A stretch of DNA of 64,000 bases, from NCBI GenBank assembly GCA_963745035.1, contig CAVUVW010000015.1, positions 300,414 through 364,413 of the forward strand, read 5' to 3'. How positions within the stretch are numbered: the first letter of the stretch is position 1; every line of letters starts with the position of its first letter. A model generated the notes under the pieces. The model searched no databases. It was not told the DNA's origin and worked only from the letters and a program-made list of their open reading frames with translations. Of this stretch, positions 554-11,348 are shown in pieces. Position numbers and translations under genes: made by a program. The stretch is from an uncultured delta proteobacterium (lineage in GTDB: Bacteria; Desulfobacterota; Binatia; UBA9968).

Positions 554-1835
554 ATGCAACTGACCTTGGCCAATCATCCGATCACAAACATGCGCTTCGG
601 CGCGCCGGCGCGCCTCGAAGGCACCGATCTGGTCGTCGATGCCGACGAGCTGCGCCGTATCGTGCTCGACGACGATGCCGTCGTCAGCGTCGACTTCGAA
701 ATCGTTCGTCCGGGCGAGAGCTGCCGCGCCGGGCCGATCTTCGATGTGATTGAACCGCGAGCCAAGGAGCCCGGCTACGGCGCCGATTTCCCCGGCATTT
801 TGGGCGCGCCGCTTACGGCGGGAATGGGCACGACACATGTTCTAAGCGGCGCGGCGGTATCGGTGCTCGCGGAAATCTCCCCGATCTTACGAGAAGCGCC
901 ACCGGGCGCGTTCTCGAAATGAGCGGCGCTCCGGCTGAGGCGAGCGCCGTATTCCGCGCTCACGCACCTGCTCGTGATTCCGCACACCAAACCAGATTTG
1001 CCGCGCCAAGCGATTGAAAAAGCTTATCGCATCGCCGGCATTCGAGTCGCGGTGCGCTGTCGCGCGACTCGCTCTAAGACCGCGCCGCGGATCGCGGCAC
1101 CAGTTCGAGCCGGTCGGGCCGGCGCGGCAAGCCGCGCAGGTCTGCCGCGCGTCGCCTACATCGGACAGATTTTTTCCCGCCAGCGCAAACCCGCCGTCGA
1201 CGAGCCGATTCTTTACGGCGCCAATACCGACGGCATGCTGCCGATCATGCTCCATCCCGATGAATGGCTCGACGGCGCCATCGTGCCGTCGCTGCATTCA
1301 TGGTTCGGCGGCACGGAAACTTATTTCTATCAGAATCATCCGATCATTCTCGATCTCTATCGGCGCCATCAGGCGCGCGAAATAAATTTCGTCGGCACGG
1401 TCGCCACCATCGCCGGCTCGGACAATTTCGACCGCGAGCGCCACTGCAAGGCGGCCGCCAATCTGGTGAAATGGAATTTGCAAGCCGACGGCGCGGTGCT
1501 GTCCAAATACGGCGGCGGCTTGCCCCACGCCGATCTGGCGGAAACTGCGCGTCTGCTCGAAGACATGGGCGATAAAAACGGCGGTGATGGTTTCCGACGT
1601 GTCGCGCGACCGGCGAGTCGAGTCGGCGCTGCTTTTCAATGTCCCGGAAGTCAACGCCATCGTCTACAACGGCGGCAACGGCACGTATTGGGAAGTGCCA
1701 AAAGTGGATCGCGTCGTCGCCGCGACCGCGGAATTTACCGAACTGCTGGCCGGCCCAATGAAGATCGACGCGGCCAATATCGTCGGCGTAACCAACCAGC
1801 AAGGCGCATCGAAAATGAGAGCATTGGTGTACTAG
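554..1835 (+). CDS. Glycine/sarcosine/betaine reductase component B proprotein subunit (GrdE-like), split by indels
   Basis: ORFs 554-922, 974-1870 and 1584-1835 join: ...IVRPGESCRAGPIFDVIEPRAK...LHPDEWLDGAIV...TYFYQNHPIILDLY...ADGAVLSKYGGG; lies directly upstream of a GrdB-like gene. Confidence 0.85.
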
Positions 1836-1910
1836 AAGGCCACGAGGCGAAAGGCGTGAGGCGTGAGTGAGGATTCATACTCATGCCTCGCGCCTCAAGC
1901 CTCATGCCTT
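1836..1910. repeat. Heptamer tandem-repeat hairpin (GAGGCGT-like / ATGCCTC-like arms)
   Basis: gaggcga aaggcgt gaggcgt gagt ... actc atgcctc gcgcctc aagcctc atgcctt; ends just before the GAGGAG Shine-Dalgarno of the next gene. Confidence 0.8.
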
Positions 1911-1921
1911 GAGGAGCTTCC

Positions 1922-3212
1922 ATGCGAGTCGCACATTACTTGAATCAGTTCTTCGGCGGCGTCGGCGCTGAGGAGCATGCCGGCAAGGGTTTGGAGATCC
2001 ACGACGGCGCGGTCGGGCCCGGCCGGCTGCTGGAACAGTTGCTCGGCGGCAGACGCGCGCGTCGCATTGACTTTTGTCTGCGGCGATAATTTCGCGGTCG
2101 AAAATCAAGATGAGTTGACCGCCGCCGTGCTGGAAAGGCTCCGCGCCGCGAGCATTGATCTGTTCGTCGCCGGTCCATGCTTCGATGCCGGACGCTACGG
2201 CATGGCGGCCGGCGCGCTTTGCCGCGCCGTGCAAAGCGAACTCAAGATTCCCGTAATCACCGCGATGAGCGAAGAAAATCCCGGCGTCGATCTCCACCGC
2301 GACGCGCTCTACATCATCGACTCGGGAACGAATGCGGCAAAAATGCGCGACGTGCTCGGCAAGATGGCCGAGCTCTCGGCCAGAAACTTGTCGCCAACGC
2401 GCCGATCGGTTTGCCCGGCCGAGGAAGGCTATTTGCGGCGCGGTTGGCTGCGCGATCAACTGGTCGAAAAAACCGCGGCGACCCGGCTCGTCGACATGCT
2501 GCTTGGCGAAAATGAGCGGCGCGCCGTTCGAATCCGAAATGCCGGCCACGTCGTTCGCGCCCGTGCCGATACCGGCGGCGATGCAGGATCTATCGAAAGC
2601 CAAGGTGATGTTGATCACCGACGGCGGCCTGGTTCCCAAGGGCAATCCGGATCGGATCGAGGGCACCGCCGCGACGCGTTGGGGCGCTTACAACATCGAA
2701 GGCCGCGACGATCTGCGCGGCGAAGAATACGAAGTTTCCCACGGCGGCTACGACACGCGATTTGTTCAGGAAGATCCCGATCGGCTGGTTCCGCTCGACG
2801 CCATGCGCGAGATGGAAAAGAACGGCGTCATCGGTAAGCTCCACGATGAATTCATTTCCACCTGCGGCCGCTCCAATCCGCTGTCGAATACGCGCCGGCT
2901 CGGCCGGGAGATCGCCGACAAGATCAAGAAGGACGGCGTCGACGCGGTCATCCTTACGTCGACGTGAGGTACCAGCACTCGCAGCGGCGCTGCGATCACG
3001 ACCGAGCTGGAGAAGGCGGGCATTCCCGGTCGTGCAAATCACCTCCGCCCTGCCGATTGCCAAAATGGTCGGCTCCAACCGGGTGGTTCTCGGCGACCGG
3101 CATCGTCCACGTGACCGGCGACGCCAAGCTTCCGCCCGCCGACGAAAAGGACCTGCGGCGAAAGTTCGTCCAGCAAGCGCTCGACGCGCTGCAGTCCGAC
3201 AAGACACAGTAG
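1922..3212 (+). CDS. Glycine/betaine/sarcosine reductase selenoprotein B (GrdB-like), Sec at TGA 2965-2967; several indels
   Basis: N-terminus MRVAHYLNQFFGGVGAEEHA; FVAGPCFDAGRYG; ITDGGLVPKGNPDRIE; HGGYD; DPDRLVPLD; VDAVILTST-TGA-GTSTRSGAAITTELEKAGIP continues in frame. Confidence 0.92.
2979..2995 (+). promoter_or_regulatory. Putative bacterial SECIS hairpin for the GrdB-like Sec codon
   Basis: TCGCAGC-GGC-GCTGCGA: perfect 7-bp stem with G-containing loop, starting after an 11-nt spacer following the TGA. Confidence 0.75.
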
Positions 3213-3370
3213 CCGCTCCTCGTTCTGAACGAGCTTCCCGGGATTGGCGTGAGGCGGGCAACGGGGCTTGCGTCAGCGTCAACCCTTGATTGCTCGCCTG
3301 CAGGTCACGCCGCGCTCTACACAAACGGTGAATTTATCGTTAGAATCTTCTCGGCCTGCAGTTTTTATTT

Positions 3371-4021
3371 ATGGATGCGTCAAAAACCAAGTTTCTCTTG
3401 CTTGGCCTGGGCGTCGTCGGTCTGGGCATCGTCCTGGGCACCGCCCTTTGGCTCAGAGTCGGGGCGCCGCAGGGACCGTGGGGCCACGCTTCGGGCAACT
3501 CGGCTGAGAGTCTCGAACAGTATGGCGCGGTGCCCGATTTCGCATTGACGGAAAGAAACGGCAATGCCGTCGGCCTCGACGAGCTGCGCGGCAAGATTTG
3601 GATCGCGGATTTTATCTACACGACCTGCACGGACACCTGCCCATTGCAGACCGCGATGATGGCCAAGCTCCAGCAAGAATATGCCCACAAGCCTGAGGTA
3701 CAGTTCGTTTCGTTTACGGTCGACCCGGAGCGGGACACGCCGGAAGTGCTGACGGCTTACGGCGCCAAACACCAAGCCGACGCCGCGCGCTGGTATTTCT
3801 TGACCGGCCGGCGCGATCGCATCATGCGCTTGATCCAGGATGGGTTTCACCTGGCGGTGGCGGCGCTGCCGGTCGATGCCGCGCCCGGCGGCATGATCCC
3901 GCACAGTCCGCGCTTTGTCTTGGTCGACAAGCAATCCCGCATCCGCGGCTACTATGACAGCCGCGACCTCGAGGCATTCGCGCGCCTCAAGAACCACATC
4001 GATACTTTGTTGAAGGGGTAG
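3371..4021 (+). CDS. SCO1/SenC family copper chaperone
   Basis: N-terminal TM helix; FIYTTCTDTCP (CxxxC); TVDPERDTPE; conserved His in HSPRFVLVD. Confidence 0.92.
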   Translation: MDASKTKFLLLGLGVVGLGIVLGTALWLRVGAPQGPWGHASGNSAESLEQYGAVPDFALTERNGNAVGLDELRGKIWIADFIYTTCTDTCPLQTAMMAKLQQEYAHKPEVQFVSFTVDPERDTPEVLTAYGAKHQADAARWYFLTGRRDRIMRLIQDGFHLAVAALPVDAAPGGMIPHSPRFVLVDKQSRIRGYYDSRDLEAFARLKNHIDTLLKG

Positions 4022-4027
4022 ATAGAG

Positions 4028-4900
4028 ATGGCCAACGAGAAAAGCAAGAAAGGCAAGCAACCGGCTGCCGCGGGACTCGTGCGCGAGGGGCCGAACTGGC
4101 CGCTGTTTGTGCTGGCGGTTCTCGGCATGGCCTTGTCGGGATATCTCACGTTTTCCGCGTGGCAAGGAGACCGCGCCGCGTTCTGCGCCGAAGGAGCCGG
4201 CTGTGATGTCGTGCTCAGCAGCCGCTGGGCGACGCTCCTAGGCATGCCGACCTCATTCTGGGGTTTTCTAACTTACGCGCTGCTCGGCGCCGTCGCGTGG
4301 AATCGCGATGCCGCCAATCAATGGCGCTGGGCTTGGGTGATTTCCCTGTTCGGTCTGTTTTTCAGTCTGTATTTAACCGGCGTCTCGTTTTTGTCATTGC
4401 AGGCAGCCTGCCCCTACTGCCTGGGTTCGCTCGGGCTGATGACGGCTATTTTTCTTCTGACGACGTTGCAGCGACCGAAGAACTTGCCGAAGTTTTCCTG
4501 GGGACCGTTCCTGGGAAAAAGCGTCGGTGCCGCGGCGCTCGTCATGATCGCGCTGCATCTGCACTACGCCGGCTACCTGGGCAGCGCTCCCAAACCCGAG
4601 GACCCCTGGATTCGCGCCTTGGCGGAGCATCTGTCCAAGACCGACGTGAAGTTTTACGGCGCCTCGTGGTGCCCTCACTGCACCGAGCAGAAACACCTCT
4701 TTGGCAGCTCGGAAAAGCGCATCCCTTATGTCGAATGCAGCCCGGGTGGATCCAAGGGACCCCAGGCGCCGGCTTGCAAGGAGAAAAATATTCAGAGCTA
4801 TCCGACCTGGATCATCAACGGACAGCGCTATACCGGCATCCAGCCGTTGGATGCGCTCGCGCGGTTCAGCAACTTTCAATATCAAGGAGACAAACGATGA
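4028..4900 (+). CDS. Vitamin K epoxide reductase (VKOR) fused to a thioredoxin-like domain
   Basis: FCAEGAGCDVVLSSRWA loop cysteines; CPYC active site in the TM region; C-terminal YGASWCPHC, YVEC, SYPTW. Confidence 0.92.
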   Translation: MANEKSKKGKQPAAAGLVREGPNWPLFVLAVLGMALSGYLTFSAWQGDRAAFCAEGAGCDVVLSSRWATLLGMPTSFWGFLTYALLGAVAWNRDAANQWRWAWVISLFGLFFSLYLTGVSFLSLQAACPYCLGSLGLMTAIFLLTTLQRPKNLPKFSWGPFLGKSVGAAALVMIALHLHYAGYLGSAPKPEDPWIRALAEHLSKTDVKFYGASWCPHCTEQKHLFGSSEKRIPYVECSPGGSKGPQAPACKEKNIQSYPTWIINGQRYTGIQPLDALARFSNFQYQGDKR

Positions 4901-5370
4901 TCGCGCTCCGGATGCAACAAAGCGGTGGCGCCGCTCTCGTGAGCTTGGCGCTGACAATTTTTTCGATCGGACCGGCGCACGCGGATCCTTCCAAATATCC
5001 GGCCTTCGCCCAGCAGTCGCTGCCGCAAGATATCAAGCCGGAATTTATCGGCATCGAGGATCTCGTCAAAGAGATCCAGGCGGGCGCCAAGCCGGTGATC
5101 ATCGACGTGCGCACGGTCGAAGAATTTCACGAGGTGCATATTTTGGGCGCGGTTTCCGCCCCGCTCGCGGAGTTCAAGGATTATGTGAAGAGCATTCCGC
5201 GCGATCGCCCGGTCGTGCTCTATTGAGCTTGCCCCCATCACCTGGCCAGTCTGGCCTACGGCATGCTCTACGAAAACGGTTATCGCAACATGAAGATCCT
5301 CGACGAAGGAATCGTCGGATGGTACCAAAAGCGCTATCCGATGGAAGGGACCAAAACGCCCCGCTCCTGA
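4897..5370 (+). CDS. Signal-peptide rhodanese-domain selenoprotein (Sec at TGA 5224-5226, UxC motif)
   Basis: ATG overlaps the VKOR stop; signal-like N-terminus ending AHA; IIDVRTVEEFHEVHILGA; VVLY-TGA-ACPHHLASLAYGMLYENGYRNMKILDEGIVGWYQKRYP completes the rhodanese fold; final stop 5368-5370. Confidence 0.85.
5236..5265 (+). promoter_or_regulatory. Putative SECIS hairpin for the rhodanese Sec codon
   Basis: GGCCA-GTC-TGGCC (5244-5256) with lower CC/GG and CAT/ATG pairing; the apical CAGTCTG resembles the E. coli fdhF SECIS apex (CAGGTCTG). Confidence 0.6.
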
Positions 5371-5373
5371 GCT

Positions 5374-6070
5374 ATGGCCGCTAAGAACGCCGTGATCCTG
5401 CTGAGCGGCGGCATCGACTCCGCCACCGCCGCCGCCGTCGCGAAACGGGACGGCTACGATCTGCATGCGTTGACCTTCCACTACGGCCAGCGCCACGAGC
5501 GGGAGATCGAGTGCGCCGGGAAAATTGCCGCATTCTTGGGGGCAAAAACACAAAAGGTCATGCGCTTCGACTTGCGAGCGATCGGCGGCTCCGCTCTCAC
5601 CGACGACATCGCGGTGCCCAAGGAACGGAGCGAGGACGAGATCGCGGCCGGCGTGCCGATGACCTACGTGCCGGCGCGCAACACCATCTTTCTGTCGTTC
5701 GCATTGGCGCTCGCCGAGCGCATCGGCTCCCAGGATATTTTTTTCGGCGCCAACCAATTGGACTACAGCGGCTATCCGGATTGCCGCGACGAATACATCC
5801 GGGCGTTTGAAAAAATGGCGAATCTGGCCACCAAGGCCGGAGTGGAGGGCAAGAGCCGGATGAGCGTTCACGCGCCGCTACTGCAAATGACCAAGGCGGA
5901 GATCGTCAAGCTCGGTGATTCCCTCGGTCTTGACTTCGGTTTGACCTGGAGCTGCTACGATCCGCGACCGGGCGGGCGGGCGTGCGGCCAGTGCGACAGC
6001 TGCCGGCTCCGGCTGAAGGGCTTCCGCGAAGCCGGCCGCAGTCGATCCGCTCGCCTACGCCGAAGACTGA
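5374..6070 (+). CDS. queC: 7-cyano-7-deazaguanine synthase QueC (indel near 3' end hides the true stop)
   Basis: LSGGIDS; TYVPARNTIFLSFA; DYSGYPDCR; TWSCY...CGQCDSC; shifted frame ends VDPLAYAED* at 6068-6070. Confidence 0.93.
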
Positions 6071-6974: not shown

Positions 6975-8799
6975 ATGGAGTTTCTCAACCCTGCCGCCCT
7001 GCTCGGGCTGCTCGCCCTGCCGCTGCTGCTGATTCCTTACCTGGTAAGGCGCAAGCCGCGCCGCATGGTATTTTCAAGTCTCCTGCTTTTTCTCGAGGGC
7101 GGCACCCGCGCCAGCCGCCCTCTCGGACGCATCAATCTGCCGCCGCTGTTTTTTCTCCAGCTGCTGCTGCTGGCGCTGCTGATCTTGGCGCTGAGCGAGC
7201 CGGTCTTTTCGGTCCGGCCGACCAACGTCGCCTTGGTCCTGGACAACTCGGCGAGCATGCAAGCCGTGGAAGACGGCAAAGCCAGATTCGATCTCGCCAA
7301 AGAAAAACTCGGCGCCGTCGCCGGCGAGCTCAGCCCGTCCGGGTTGATCGATCTCTACCTGACCGTGCCGCAACTGGCGAAATTCAATCGCGACCCGTGG
7401 AGCCCGGCCCAGGCGCTCGACGCTGTGGGCAAGCTCGGCGCCTATGACCTGGGCGATGCGCCGATCGACTATGATCAGGCCTTGAACCAATTGGTCCGCG
7501 AGCAAAAGTACCAGCGCGTTTATTTATTCACCGACCATCCCGCGGCCGAGCAAAGCGCGACAATTCGAGTCGTTTCCATCGGCCGGCCGCGCGCGAATCT
7601 CGCCGTCACCGGCTTTGAGGTTCACCGCAGCTCGCTCGTCGACGCGCGCATGGAGGCAAGCGCGGCCGTGGCCAACTTCTCCGGCCGTGACGAAAAGATT
7701 CAGGTTGTGCTCAAGGCCGGCGACGCCACGTTGGCCAGTCGGGAGATCGCCGTTCCCGCCGACAAGACCTCGACGGTGAATTTTGCCGGGTTTGCGGAGC
7801 GGCCGTACTACGAAATCGAGATCGGCGCGCGCGATGCCTTGGCCCTCGACAATCGCCGTTTCGCCGTCGCTCCCAGATCGCGCAGCCTGCGCATCCTCGC
7901 AGTCACTCCGCGTCCCCAGGCCGCCGCGAGCCTCAAGACCATTCAAGGCGTCAGCGTGGACACGGCGGCCCCCGCCGAATACGGCAACGTCGTCCGCGGC
8001 GGGCATGATCTTGAGATTTTCCATTACTCGTCGCCCGCGCGCCTGCCGGAAAGCCCCGCGCTGTTTATTTTGCCGCCGGAGAACAGCTCGCTGGTCGATT
8101 TGGGCGCGCCGATGTCAAAGCCCCAGATTTCCGGTTGGCGCGAGCCGCACCGGCTCACCCGTTACGTGAATTTCAGCCTGCTCCGACCGACTTACGCCCG
8201 GCCGTTGCGGCCGCAAACCGCCGGCCAGGTGATCCTCGAAGGTCCGGGCGGCGCGCTCGCCTTCGCCGTCGAGCAGCGCGGCATCCGCTATCTCACCCTC
8301 GGATTCGATCCCCTGCCGTATCTCGGGCCGCGACAATTTGCCGATGTCGATCTTTACCCTCAACCTTCTCGATTGGTTCTTCGAGAGCGCCGGGGCGCGG
8401 GCTCAGGCGACCGGAGAACCGATTCCGCTCGGCTCCGTCGAGCCGGGCGACTCGCTCACGACTCCCGCGGGTCAAGACGTCGGCCTCAAGCGCGGCGCCG
8501 GCTATTTCCAGCCCACCTTTCAGCAGGGAATTTATCGGCGCAGCCGGGCCGGCGTAAGCGACCTATTCGCCCGCAACTTGGGGGCTATCGGCGAATCGGA
8601 CCTGCGCCACACCACGCCCATCGAGTTGCGCGGCCAGGCGGCGGCCGCCGCCAGCGCCTCGACGCTGTTTTCCTTCTGGCCCTACCTCGTGCTCGCTTCG
8701 CTGCTGCTTTTCATGCTTGAATGGTTTCTCTACCCGCGCTCGCCGCCGGCGCTGTCTGGAGCGCGCCGGGGCTGGCGGCAGATGGTGGCGCGCCGATGA
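6975..8799 (+). CDS. BatA N-terminal / vWA domain membrane protein (indel near 8330)
   Basis: MEFLNPAALLGLLALPLLLIPYL BatA-like start; VLDNSASM MIDAS; C-terminal ESDL...WPYLVLASLLLFMLEW. Confidence 0.85.
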
Positions 8800-11348
8800 C
8801 TGCGATGTTCGCGGATATCGTTTTCGCCAAACCGGCCTTTCTCTGGCTGCTTGTGCTCCTGCCGCTGCTTTGGCTGCGCGCGCGCCAGCGCCGTTTCGCG
8901 GTGGTGATCGCCCGCACTTTGATCCTCGCCCTGGTGATTCTCACTCTCGCCGATCCGCAGTCGGCGAGCCAACATTCGCGCCGCCAGGAGCGCGTCTTCG
9001 CCTTCGATGCCTCCGACAGTATTCCCGCTTCGGTGCGGCAGTGGATGAAAAACTCACGCAACGGTCTGTCGGCGCCCGGCAGTGGCGATCGCGTTTTCAT
9101 CTTCGGCTCGAGCGCGGCCGAGGTCGCCGATTGGAGCGCACACCTCGACGGCGACCGATCGAAGGCAGTCGCGATCCAACCCGGGAAAACCAACCTTGAG
9201 AGTGTGTTGCAGGCTGTCTTGGCGCTGCCGCCGGCGCCGCGCAATCTTTACCTGTTCACCGACGGGTGGGAAACCGAAGGAAATATCGAACGGGTGCTGC
9301 CGGCGGTGGCCGCGGCGGGGATCAGAATTCATCCGATAGTACCGGCCGGCCGGCCGGCGATTCCAAATATTGCCGTGACCAAGCTGCTGGCGCCGACCCA
9401 GGGCAGCAGCGGCGAGAGCCTGAACCTCAAAGTCGTGGTCGAGAATCAAAGCGACCAGCCGATCGATGGGACATTGGCGCTGGCGCGCAACGGCCAGACA
9501 TTCAAGACCGAGACGGTCAAGGTGGATCCGGGAAGCCAGGTTTTTTCCTTTCAGACTACGCCGGCGGAAGGCGCTTTGACTTCTTTTCAGGCGGCGTTTA
9601 CTCCGCGCCAAGCCAACCTCGACAGCTACCCGGCCGACAACCGCGCTTTGGCGTGGGTTTCGGTGCGCGCCAAAGCCAAAGTTCTGCTGATTAACGGTGC
9701 GAGCGGCGCCGGCCGCCACTTGGAAGAAATTCTCAAACGGCAGGGTCTCGACGTCACCGTGCGCGCGCCTGAGAACTCGCCGGCTCCCACCGGTTATAAA
9801 GTTGTCATTTTTAATAACGCCGAGCGCGACAAGTTTTCTTCCGCTTATCTCGCGGCGGTGGAAAAGCACGTCGCCGCCGGCAATGGCTTTATCATGCTCG
9901 GCGCCGATGCGAGCTTTGCGCCCACCAGTTACCGCCAGACGCCGATCGAGCGGGTCTTGCCGGTGGAGCCGAGAGAGCCGCCCAAGCGCGAAGAAAAAAA
10001 CCGCGCGATCGTTCTGGTCATCGACAAGTCGGGCAGCATGCGCGACGACAACCGGATCGTCTATGCCAAGGAAGCCGCCAAGGCGGTCGCGCGCCAACTC
10101 AGGGACATCGATCTGCTTGGCGTCGTGGGATTCGATGATGCGCCGTTCGTGGTCGTCTATCTGGAAACCATGGCGCGCCTGCGCGGCGTGATCGAAACCC
10201 AGATTGATAGGCTCAAGCCCGGCGGGCAAACCTACTTTCTCCCTGCCATTCTGGAGGCGAGACGGCAGCTCGAACGGGCCAACGCGACGCGTAAGCATAT
10301 TATTCTGTTGAGCGATGGAGTGACCCGTGGCAGTCAGGGCGAGCTCGTCGATCTGGTCAGCTCGATGAAGAATGATTCCAAGATCACGGTTTCAGCCGTG
10401 GCGATCAGCACCGAGGCCGACGTCCGGATCATGAAGCGGCTGAGCCAATATGGCGGCGGGTTGTTTCACCACACGATCGACCCCTCGAGCTTGCCCCAAA
10501 TCGTTTTGGATCAGCTTCAAGACAAGCCCAAAGATGAGCCGCAGAACGAGGGACCCTGGACGCCCATTCCCGACCGCGGCTCGGAACTGTTGGCGGGAGT
10601 CGCCGCCCGAGCTTATCCGAGCGTTCTCGGATTTATGGAAACTGACCTCAAGAAGGGCGCACGGATGGACTTGGCGGTCCAGCGCCAGGATCGCCGCCTG
10701 CCGCTCTTGGCGTCGTGGCGCTATGGCCAGGGCAAATCGATCGCATTCACCATGGACTTGGAGGGCCGCTGGAGCCGGAACTGGATTCCGTGGAGCGGCC
10801 TGCAAGGTTTTTGGAATCGGCTCTTGGAATGGCTCGCGCCGCCCGAAGAAAATCTGGTTCCGGCCCATGAAGCCCGGGTGACCTTTTCGGAAAATCAGTC
10901 GGTTCTCGACCTCTCGATCTATGAAGAGGTCGCTGCCAACAGCCAGTACCGTTTCACCCTCAGCGGCAAGTCCAAGGCCGAAGGTACGCTTACCAAGCTG
11001 GCACCGGGACACTATCAAACTGTCCTGCCGGCGACGGAGCCAGGCGACTACCGGATCGACGTCTCGGAGGATCGGGGTGGCCGGCGGATCGCCTTTCCGC
11101 CGGTCGGCTATAGCCTTGCCTACTCGTTGAATGGCGAATTGCCGCGGCCGGATTTCAACACGCGCCTGCTCGCCCGCATGGCCGAAGCCACCGGTGGCGA
11201 GATCAACCCGGCCTCCAGTCAGACACAGGCGCAGGTCAGCACAACTAAAAGCTATGCACCGCTGAAACAGCCGTTGATTATCCTGGCGTTTTGCCTGTTC
11301 TTGGTCGAAGTGGCGCTGCGGAAGTTTGTCTTTGCCGAGCCCGATTGA
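8796..11348 (+). CDS. Large vWA-domain membrane protein with glutamine-amidotransferase-like middle domain
   Basis: Two vWA motifs (FDASDS...TDG; VIDKSGSM...LSDG); PLLASWRYGQGK; ATGG and C-terminal TM helix. Confidence 0.85.
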   Translation: MTAMFADIVFAKPAFLWLLVLLPLLWLRARQRRFAVVIARTLILALVILTLADPQSASQHSRRQERVFAFDASDSIPASVRQWMKNSRNGLSAPGSGDRVFIFGSSAAEVADWSAHLDGDRSKAVAIQPGKTNLESVLQAVLALPPAPRNLYLFTDGWETEGNIERVLPAVAAAGIRIHPIVPAGRPAIPNIAVTKLLAPTQGSSGESLNLKVVVENQSDQPIDGTLALARNGQTFKTETVKVDPGSQVFSFQTTPAEGALTSFQAAFTPRQANLDSYPADNRALAWVSVRAKAKVLLINGASGAGRHLEEILKRQGLDVTVRAPENSPAPTGYKVVIFNNAERDKFSSAYLAAVEKHVAAGNGFIMLGADASFAPTSYRQTPIERVLPVEPREPPKREEKNRAIVLVIDKSGSMRDDNRIVYAKEAAKAVARQLRDIDLLGVVGFDDAPFVVVYLETMARLRGVIETQIDRLKPGGQTYFLPAILEARRQLERANATRKHIILLSDGVTRGSQGELVDLVSSMKNDSKITVSAVAISTEADVRIMKRLSQYGGGLFHHTIDPSSLPQIVLDQLQDKPKDEPQNEGPWTPIPDRGSELLAGVAARAYPSVLGFMETDLKKGARMDLAVQRQDRRLPLLASWRYGQGKSIAFTMDLEGRWSRNWIPWSGLQGFWNRLLEWLAPPEENLVPAHEARVTFSENQSVLDLSIYEEVAANSQYRFTLSGKSKAEGTLTKLAPGHYQTVLPATEPGDYRIDVSEDRGGRRIAFPPVGYSLAYSLNGELPRPDFNTRLLARMAEATGGEINPASSQTQAQVSTTKSYAPLKQPLIILAFCLFLVEVALRKFVFAEPD

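Follow-up and report, generated by a model that had tools for sequence, protein, structure and literature searches.

Five forms of rhodanese-like selenoproteins are catalogued in a 2026 review, of which parts were available to us, with the motifs UxxS, UxxG, CxU (NF041203), UxxG and UxxxxU (TsoB), where “U” is selenocysteine (Sec) and “x” is any amino acid; in the table of that review, the UxC motif has two entries only, a Cu/Zn efflux transporter and a thioredoxin-like protein (PMC13188914). Here we describe a rhodanese-like gene with an in-frame TGA codon that gives a U-x-C arrangement in the active-site loop. The gene is located in a stretch of 64,000 nucleotides (nt) from the genome of an uncultured bacterium of the Binatia lineage (GenBank assembly GCA_963745035.1, contig CAVUVW010000015.1; G000:C15:300414-364413), hereafter the window, where it is the last of three genes arranged head to tail on the same (+) strand: SCO, then VKOR fused to a thioredoxin (Trx)-like domain (VKOR-Trx), then the rhodanese. 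The genome (7.4 Mb in 28 contigs) is 92.6% complete. The relatives of the gene come from metagenome-assembled genomes (MAGs) of Candidatus Binatia, according to database names and record titles, and the organisms carrying it are abundant and uncultured.

We have very little doubt that this gene encodes a genuine rhodanese-like selenoprotein, and the exported U-x-C rhodanese proposed in an earlier note on this DNA turned out to be real, in a genome that encodes the machinery for Sec incorporation. As a whole, and leaving aside any specific relay between the three proteins, the evidence is best explained by a periplasmic selenol/thiol redox or copper-ligand protein serving copper chaperones, an interpretation to which we assign a probability of roughly 0.55. 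The earlier note also held that no described system has this composition. Rhodanese-like selenoproteins as such are known, so that this part of the statement has to be qualified, whereas the neighborhood with SCO and VKOR-Trx was not met in our literature search, which covered the sources in part. This search found no paper joining VKOR with rhodanese, Binatia with selenocysteine, or rhodanese with YcnI, and VKOR was named in none of the papers listed for Sco1, copper and the periplasm; a UxC rhodanese could sit in supplementary tables.

An in-frame TGA at the catalytic position

The reading frame continues beyond the TGA at 5224-5226 for 47 codons (5227-5367), up to a terminal TGA at 5368-5370, and in profile alignments the column of the internal TGA coincides with the catalytic cysteine of 6mxv and 3tp9, as the earlier note had claimed. 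The conservation of this codon carries the assignment. Among 41 related genomes that we examined, all 29 that possess an ortholog (E <= 1e-29) have the TGA inside it, down to 40% identity. A scan of one genome per GTDB species, the results of which overlap with this set, yielded TGA at the site in 57/57 loci; the scan patterns cannot match a second group from soil metagenomes (clade 2, ~48% identity), in which the codon is TGA in all 9 loci. When homologs were checked for Cys or TGA at the site, TGA was present in each of the 69 distinct stretches. Furthermore, residues C112, P113, H115, L119, A120, R130, N131, E137, G138, G141, W142 and P148, all located after the TGA, are invariant in 15 diverse sequences. 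Three RNA libraries, from two studies, and one DNA run supplied independent contigs over this codon; it is unchanged in all of them, and the nearby differences fall on third codon positions. The genome encodes selA, selB, selD and tRNA-Sec, all on contig C17, with selA-selB-selD clustered at C17:315468-319742 and the tRNA-Sec gene 52 kb away (C17:371273-371367); selD itself carries an in-frame TGA.

The obvious alternative is a 109-residue fragment as the product, with the TGA being a genuine stop codon, an error of sequencing or the lesion of a pseudogene. Gene callers indeed end the protein there, as do 118 of the 120 best database matches, which are 97-112 residues long, and the adjoining grdB-family gene is broken over several frames, so that local errors or decay do exist in this region. 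The alternative is countered by the presence of TGA at the same codon in all the stretches compared, by the conservation of the downstream frame as protein, by the constraint on the hairpin described below and by the agreement of independent assemblies; a changed genetic code is excluded because TGA is the ordinary stop of VKOR and of the rhodanese gene's own end. Thus, we consider a true stop or lesion extremely improbable. The active-site half of the family is invisible in databases: the annotation ends at the TGA, and no curated model captures the family.

Cys at the Sec site is found in a single record, the database protein P0055, known from the protein record alone; its nearest DNA relatives all carry TGA. 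Given that the usual bacterial gene callers do not translate TGA as Cys, P0055 is, in our view, a true Cys variant. Another database protein, P0004, has Trp at the site, presumably as a table-4 gene call would give.

A complete exported rhodanese domain

The earlier proposal that the part after the TGA completes the fold holds, given that both the Pfam domain and the AlphaFold2 model need it. The match to the Pfam Rhodanese domain (PF00581) extends over residues 57-144, spans the TGA and scores 58.0 bits against a cut-off of 22.2. AlphaFold2 models the protein, with the TGA read through, as an intact rhodanese of one domain (predicted local distance difference test score, 85.1), for which Foldseek gives a probability of 1.00 to 3nhv, 3ilm and 3tp9, with root-mean-square deviations of 1.7-1.9 over about 105 columns. 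The loop motif is U-x-C-P-[H/R]-H, with Sec in place of the catalytic Cys and a Cys at +2; the U, C, P and last H are invariant in 15 sequences.

These features bear on the possibility that the protein is an ordinary PspE-type sulfurtransferase of the periplasm, acting on thiosulfate, persulfide or cyanide, with Sec as a faster sulfane carrier and the copper genes in its neighborhoods incidental. The fold and the best solved matches are those of thiosulfate sulfurtransferase-type rhodaneses, there are weak NCBIfam matches to PspE, GlpE and ChrE, and Sec is found exactly at the persulfide-carrying position. However, the loop lacks the Arg/Ser-Thr pattern of sulfurtransferases and has the invariant second Cys, Pro and His instead; a sulfur-metabolism gene next to the rhodanese was seen in none of the examined loci, and copper genes recur in two unrelated types of neighborhoods (see below). 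On balance, we regard an ordinary sulfurtransferase as quite unlikely.

In agreement with the earlier note, the N-terminus resembles a signal peptide: as judged by eye, 26/26 orthologs start with charged residues that lead into a hydrophobic core, and carry a small residue at -1, ahead of the invariant pattern [D/N]P.xYP. From this pattern, the rhodanese is predicted to be exported by the general secretory pathway.

Constraint on the RNA downstream of the TGA

The hairpin that the earlier note placed after the TGA begins 17 nt after the UGA and forms the apical part of a longer stem (Table 1). The apical loop is GUC or GUU (GGCCA-GUY-UGGCC), and the apical hairpin is kept in 25/26 loci; the loop would be similar to that of fdhF, and the distance from the UGA would fall within the usual range. 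Across the 69 distinct stretches, the hairpin codons show little or no synonymous variation: Ala+7 is always GCC (63/63) and Ser+8 always AGT (61/61), Leu+6 and Leu+9 are only YTG, and Ala+10 is only GCC or GCT. In contrast, all four codons occur at Ala+1, beside the TGA (entropy 1.96 bits), and Pro+3 likewise varies among four. The frozen codons point to selection on the RNA, beyond that on the protein.

Other properties of this region count against a selenocysteine insertion sequence at this position. The folding energy of the 86-nt stretch is ordinary (z = -0.71; 44 of 200 shuffles fold as well or better), and because the energy is no better than that of shuffles, we dropped it as evidence and used the codon constraint instead. 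No Rfam family matched positions 5150-5400 at E values up to 10. The apical stem hardly varies and thus offers no covariation, the only common change being G-C to G-U in the outer pair. Each of the other Sec genes in the genome also has a downstream hairpin, with no sequence shared among them, which makes this comparison uninformative.

The neighboring SCO and VKOR-Trx genes

As described in the earlier note, VKOR begins a few nucleotides after SCO, with 6 nt between the SCO stop and the VKOR start, and is coupled to the rhodanese by an ATGA overlap, in which the rhodanese ATG (4897-4899) lies on the VKOR stop (4898-4900). The rhodanese, SCO and VKOR-Trx genes are probably co-transcribed; the VKOR/rhodanese junction is bridged by one RNA-library contig, although such contigs are no proof of transcription. 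The first gene is a SCO1/SenC gene with predicted copper ligands, as the profile match, the CxxxC and the distal His are all present; among 51 distinct orthologs, at least 97% retain C86, C90 and H178. In VKOR-Trx, all eight cysteines are invariant in 15 sequences. The Trx-like domain, with the motif CPHC (or CPAC), comes after the fifth hydrophobic segment, and the topology is probably like that of the cyanobacterial enzyme.

VKOR-Trx is probably an oxidant because CPHC is the motif of DsbA, and it would pass the electrons on to quinone. Such an oxidant fits the oxidation of the U-x-C pair or of the SCO CxxxC, so that a simple model in which SCO is reduced for copper loading is unlikely.

The earlier note singled out the sco-vkor-rhodanese adjacency as a check; within one order, this adjacency is conserved in three families and persists at identities as low as about 40-50%. 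In the 57 loci of the species scan, a full VKOR-Trx gene is directly upstream of the rhodanese in 51; in the others, VKOR is cut by a contig end (2 loci; L056, L069), is a roughly 200-nt remnant with stops (2 loci; L080, L081) or is absent (2 loci, L078 and L097, which have a major facilitator superfamily (MFS), aldo-keto reductase and glutathione S-transferase context). SCO is upstream of VKOR in 52 of these loci, and of the five that lack it, three are limited by contig ends, the other two being L078 and L097. The remnants (L080:1216-1430 and L081:1500-1715, both from one genus) correspond to the C-terminal end of VKOR-Trx, next to intact SCO and selenoprotein genes. In one MAG (L058:3047-4249), no stop codon separates the VKOR-Trx frame from the rhodanese, and the frame stays open as far as the Sec codon; this is either a natural fusion or an assembly indel error.

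Along with this conservation, we had to consider that no dedicated module exists, in which case VKOR-Trx would form disulfides for the periplasm at large, with SCO and the rhodanese as clients or mere neighbors in a housekeeping operon. The genome has a single VKOR and no DsbB match, four DsbA-family genes elsewhere would need an oxidase, and the rhodanese persists without an intact VKOR in 13 loci (L078, L080, L081, L097 and the nine clade 2 loci). On the other side, the gene order holds over the identity range and families given above, the genes are translationally coupled by the ATGA overlap, with the in-frame run-on of L058 in addition, and the argument concerns VKOR only and leaves the copper link untouched. 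We therefore consider a plain housekeeping operon unlikely. One of the four DsbA-family genes (C13:1485984-1486538) has a TGA inside the match.

Copper genes in two types of neighborhoods

Beyond the three-gene set, two different sets of copper genes are found beside two clades of the same selenoprotein, which we consider the strongest functional clue. In 25 of the 57 loci, from two families, the genes immediately upstream encode a Cox11/CtaG-domain protein (PF04442), a DUF4382 protein and a second SCO of canonical type. Family f3 has a single protein that joins the Cox11-like part to DUF4382, and a CFCF motif occurs in one of these fusions. In the window's own genome, the Cox11-like/SCO/DUF4382 set is found at C14:346.7-352 kb, away from the rhodanese, within a putative copper-acquisition island (G000:C14:338000-352000, L110). 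This island encodes an MFS transporter, a TonB-dependent receptor, TonB, a methyltransferase, a BNR protein, a TlpA-like redoxin, two His-rich small proteins (one DUF2946), three Cox11-domain paralogs with a long N-terminal extension, two SCO proteins and the DUF4382 protein.

In clade 2, there is no SCO or VKOR within the flanks. Instead, a DUF1775 (YcnI-like) gene is located divergently upstream in 8 of the 9 loci, the ninth having only 46 nt of flank, and four loci also encode a CopD-like membrane protein and a third conserved protein; the three-gene set, divergent from the selenoprotein, is seen at L100:2086-3809 (-) and L102:744-2473 (-). The DUF1775 protein of this clade has a His straight after the predicted signal peptide, and the third protein (216 amino acids, aa) has no Pfam match. 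According to an abstract, YcnI is a copper-binding protein.

From these neighborhoods, a copper-related function of the rhodanese selenoprotein appears rather probable. The earlier note had proposed a relay for sulfur/selenium transfer or metal loading; the metal-loading part is strengthened by the copper genes in the two types of neighborhoods, whereas nothing points to sulfur or selenium transfer. The suggestion that the rhodanese acts with VKOR and SCO is borne out as far as adjacency goes, and weakened with respect to VKOR as a dedicated partner, which is the sole such oxidase found and is absent or decayed in some loci.

In the interpretation that we favor, the U-x-C pair would cycle in the periplasm between selenolate/thiolate and selenenylsulfide. 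The Sec110-Cys112 selenenylsulfide might form or be opened through exchange reactions in which the Trx-like domain and SCO or copper take part, and this cycling would control whether the SCO CxxxC site, or copper, is oxidized or reduced; alternatively, copper could be held through Sec, Cys and His. A specific relay from VKOR-Trx through the rhodanese to SCO is doubtful. Equally tentative is the broader proposal that this is the first selenoprotein dedicated to copper-center biogenesis, with a selenenylsulfide gating the SCO, Cox11-like and YcnI-type chaperones and VKOR-Trx recycling it to the quinone pool. Should this be true, respiration or other cuproenzymes of Binatia would depend on selenium, and should the neighborhood signal hold, selenium use would for the first time be tied to copper trafficking outside the cytoplasm.

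A related possibility is a copper metallochaperone or buffer without redox turnover, in which Sec110, Cys112 and His115 form a Cu(I) site and copper moves to or from SCO, Cox11-like and YcnI-like proteins. It draws on the same neighborhoods and on the soft-ligand character of U-x-C-P-H-H, with the four invariant residues noted above, and UxC is the motif listed, in the part of the review available, for a Cu/Zn efflux selenoprotein. The first loop His is, however, not conserved (H or R), and a metal site built of thiolate and selenolate would not survive a CPHC oxidant made from the same transcript. We also know of no precedent for a copper site on a rhodanese fold. A metallochaperone without redox turnover is, in our assessment, improbable.

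Several observations weigh against a periplasmic redox or copper-ligand protein serving copper chaperones. The assignment of function is based on gene neighborhood. It is not obvious why a DsbA-like oxidant should lie next to a copper chaperone whose thiols have to be reduced. The first loop His is Arg in two families. Given that VKOR is the only DsbB/VKOR-type enzyme found in the 92.6%-complete genome, where no DsbB match was obtained, VKOR-Trx may be a general periplasmic oxidase and the adjacency may reflect housekeeping rather than a dedicated partnership. Both partners can be missing: VKOR is decayed in L080 and L081 and absent in L078, L097 and 9/9 clade 2 loci, and SCO is likewise absent in L078, L097 and the nine clade 2 loci. 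The CopD-like match of clade 2 is under the Pfam cut-off (21.8 vs 32.1). The distribution of the gene is also patchy, with an ortholog in 23/25 genomes of the genus, 2/5 of family f2 and 4/11 of family f3, and a sample of 400 genomes of the phylum gave no ortholog outside the order except for a degraded copy in G076, in which the last loop His is Phe. This copy (L109, G076:C287, positions 3400-3640), from another family, keeps the TGA, its N-terminal half is unrecognizable, and a DUF4382-like gene lies 1.8 kb downstream. Close matches to the gene come from soil and rhizosphere metagenomes and metatranscriptomes.

Features of the window and adjoining genes

The coordinates of all features are collected in Table 1. 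The consensus promoter scan found 2 sites against 0.4 expected.

Table 1. Positions of the selenoprotein gene, its putative partners and the adjoining genes in the window.
Feature	Position	Strand	Basis or remark
GrdG/GrdE-like and GrdB-family (selenoprotein B) reductase subunit genes	554..3212	+	
Sec TGA of the GrdB-family gene	2965..2967	+	
Promoter-like site TACACA-17-TAGAAT	3318..3346	+	upstream of SCO; consensus match only
SCO1/SenC-family protein, 216 aa, N-terminal membrane anchor	3371..4021	+	PF02630, 101.5 bits
SCO CxxxC (C86, C90)	3626..3640	+	
SCO His178	3902..3904	+	
VKOR fused to thioredoxin-like domain, 290 aa	4028..4900	+	PF07884, 85.6 bits
VKOR loop Cys53/Cys59	4184..4204	+	
VKOR CPYC (C128, C131)	4409..4420	+	
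Trx-like domain of VKOR-Trx	~4610..4897	+	
WCPHC of the Trx-like domain (Cys215/Cys218)	4670..4681	+	
Rhodanese-like selenoprotein, 157 aa with TGA as Sec	4897..5370	+	PF00581, TGA conservation, AlphaFold2/Foldseek
Predicted Sec-type signal peptide, residues 1-29, ending AHA before DPSKYP	4897..4983	+	by-eye pattern, 26 orthologs
Active-site loop U110-A-C112-P-H-H, Sec codon TGA 5224-5226	5224..5241	+	TGA conservation; catalytic-Cys alignment
Stem-loop resembling a selenocysteine insertion sequence (SECIS), apical hairpin GGCCA-GUC-UGGCC at 5244-5256	5225..5268	+	fold and frozen synonymous sites
QueC and DUF58 in one open frame, 532 aa	5374..6972	+	
Double-transmembrane protein and BatA-like VWA protein	6975..11348		downstream of QueC/DUF58

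Upstream of the promoter-like site, the GrdB-family gene is spread over three or more reading frames, and the gene for the alpha subunit is broken up as well; the former is either a decaying selenoprotein gene or one affected by local indel errors. Downstream of the rhodanese, QueC and DUF58 share one open frame in the window and are separate genes, in different frames, in relatives. These two were considered as parts of the module and rejected, being adjacent to the rhodanese within the genus only.

Comparison with known systems

The closest described form is the CxU type (rhodanese_LYCAU, NF041203, form 3), which likewise has a single rhodanese domain and a Sec/Cys pair two positions apart at the start of the loop, followed by Pro. 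NF041203 is the best NCBIfam match of the protein described here, yet the match reaches 60.1 bits, below the cut-off of 115 (53.3 in the genome scan), and the order of the pair is reversed: in NF041203, Cys is catalytic and Sec is at +2, whereas here Sec is catalytic and Cys is at +2. The same genome encodes two CxU-type rhodanese domains with an in-frame TGA, at C10:50873-51190 (-) and C27:202997-203326 (+) (L034 and L035), which score 78-79 bits against the same cut-off. The loop length and the Pro are alike between these domains and the protein in the window; however, the latter is free and exported, whereas the CxU copies are C-terminal domains of membrane proteins.

TsoB (NF045694, form 5), a rhodanese/DsbD fusion-like protein, resembles ours in that a selenoprotein of the rhodanese type is coupled to an electron carrier for thiol-disulfide exchange in the membrane. 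The DsbD-like partner of TsoB is reductive, whereas VKOR-Trx is a separate protein and probably oxidative. Our protein scores 17.9 bits against the TsoB cut-off of 805, and the TsoB motif given in the accessible part of the review, UxxxxU, contains two Sec residues (PMC13188914), compared with one in UxC.

The VKOR-Trx protein has the VKOR profile, the loop Cys pair, the membrane CxxC and the CxxC of the Trx-like domain in common with the cyanobacterial-type enzymes, and differs in being encoded in an operon with SCO and a selenoprotein; by analogy, quinone-dependent oxidation is predicted. The architecture of the VKOR-Trx fusion is reportedly known from a Synechococcus structure.

With regard to SCO, TlpA is said to be the dedicated redox partner of ScoI in Bradyrhizobium. 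In mitochondria, according to abstracts, COA6 has this role for SCO1. Both pairs resemble the present locus in that a small extracytoplasmic thiol-disulfide protein is encoded with or acts with SCO, but TlpA and COA6 have thioredoxin or CHCH folds and cysteines and are reductants, whereas the protein described here combines Sec with a rhodanese fold and is encoded next to a CPHC domain of oxidant type.

PspE of E. coli is, like our protein, an exported single-domain rhodanese (a weak NCBIfam match, 28 bits), but it has one Cys, no Sec and no CPHH loop; it is reportedly linked to periplasmic disulfide formation.

Overall, compared with the five forms listed in the accessible part of the review, the exported UxC protein is a sixth motif type of rhodanese-like selenoproteins rather than a new kind of protein.

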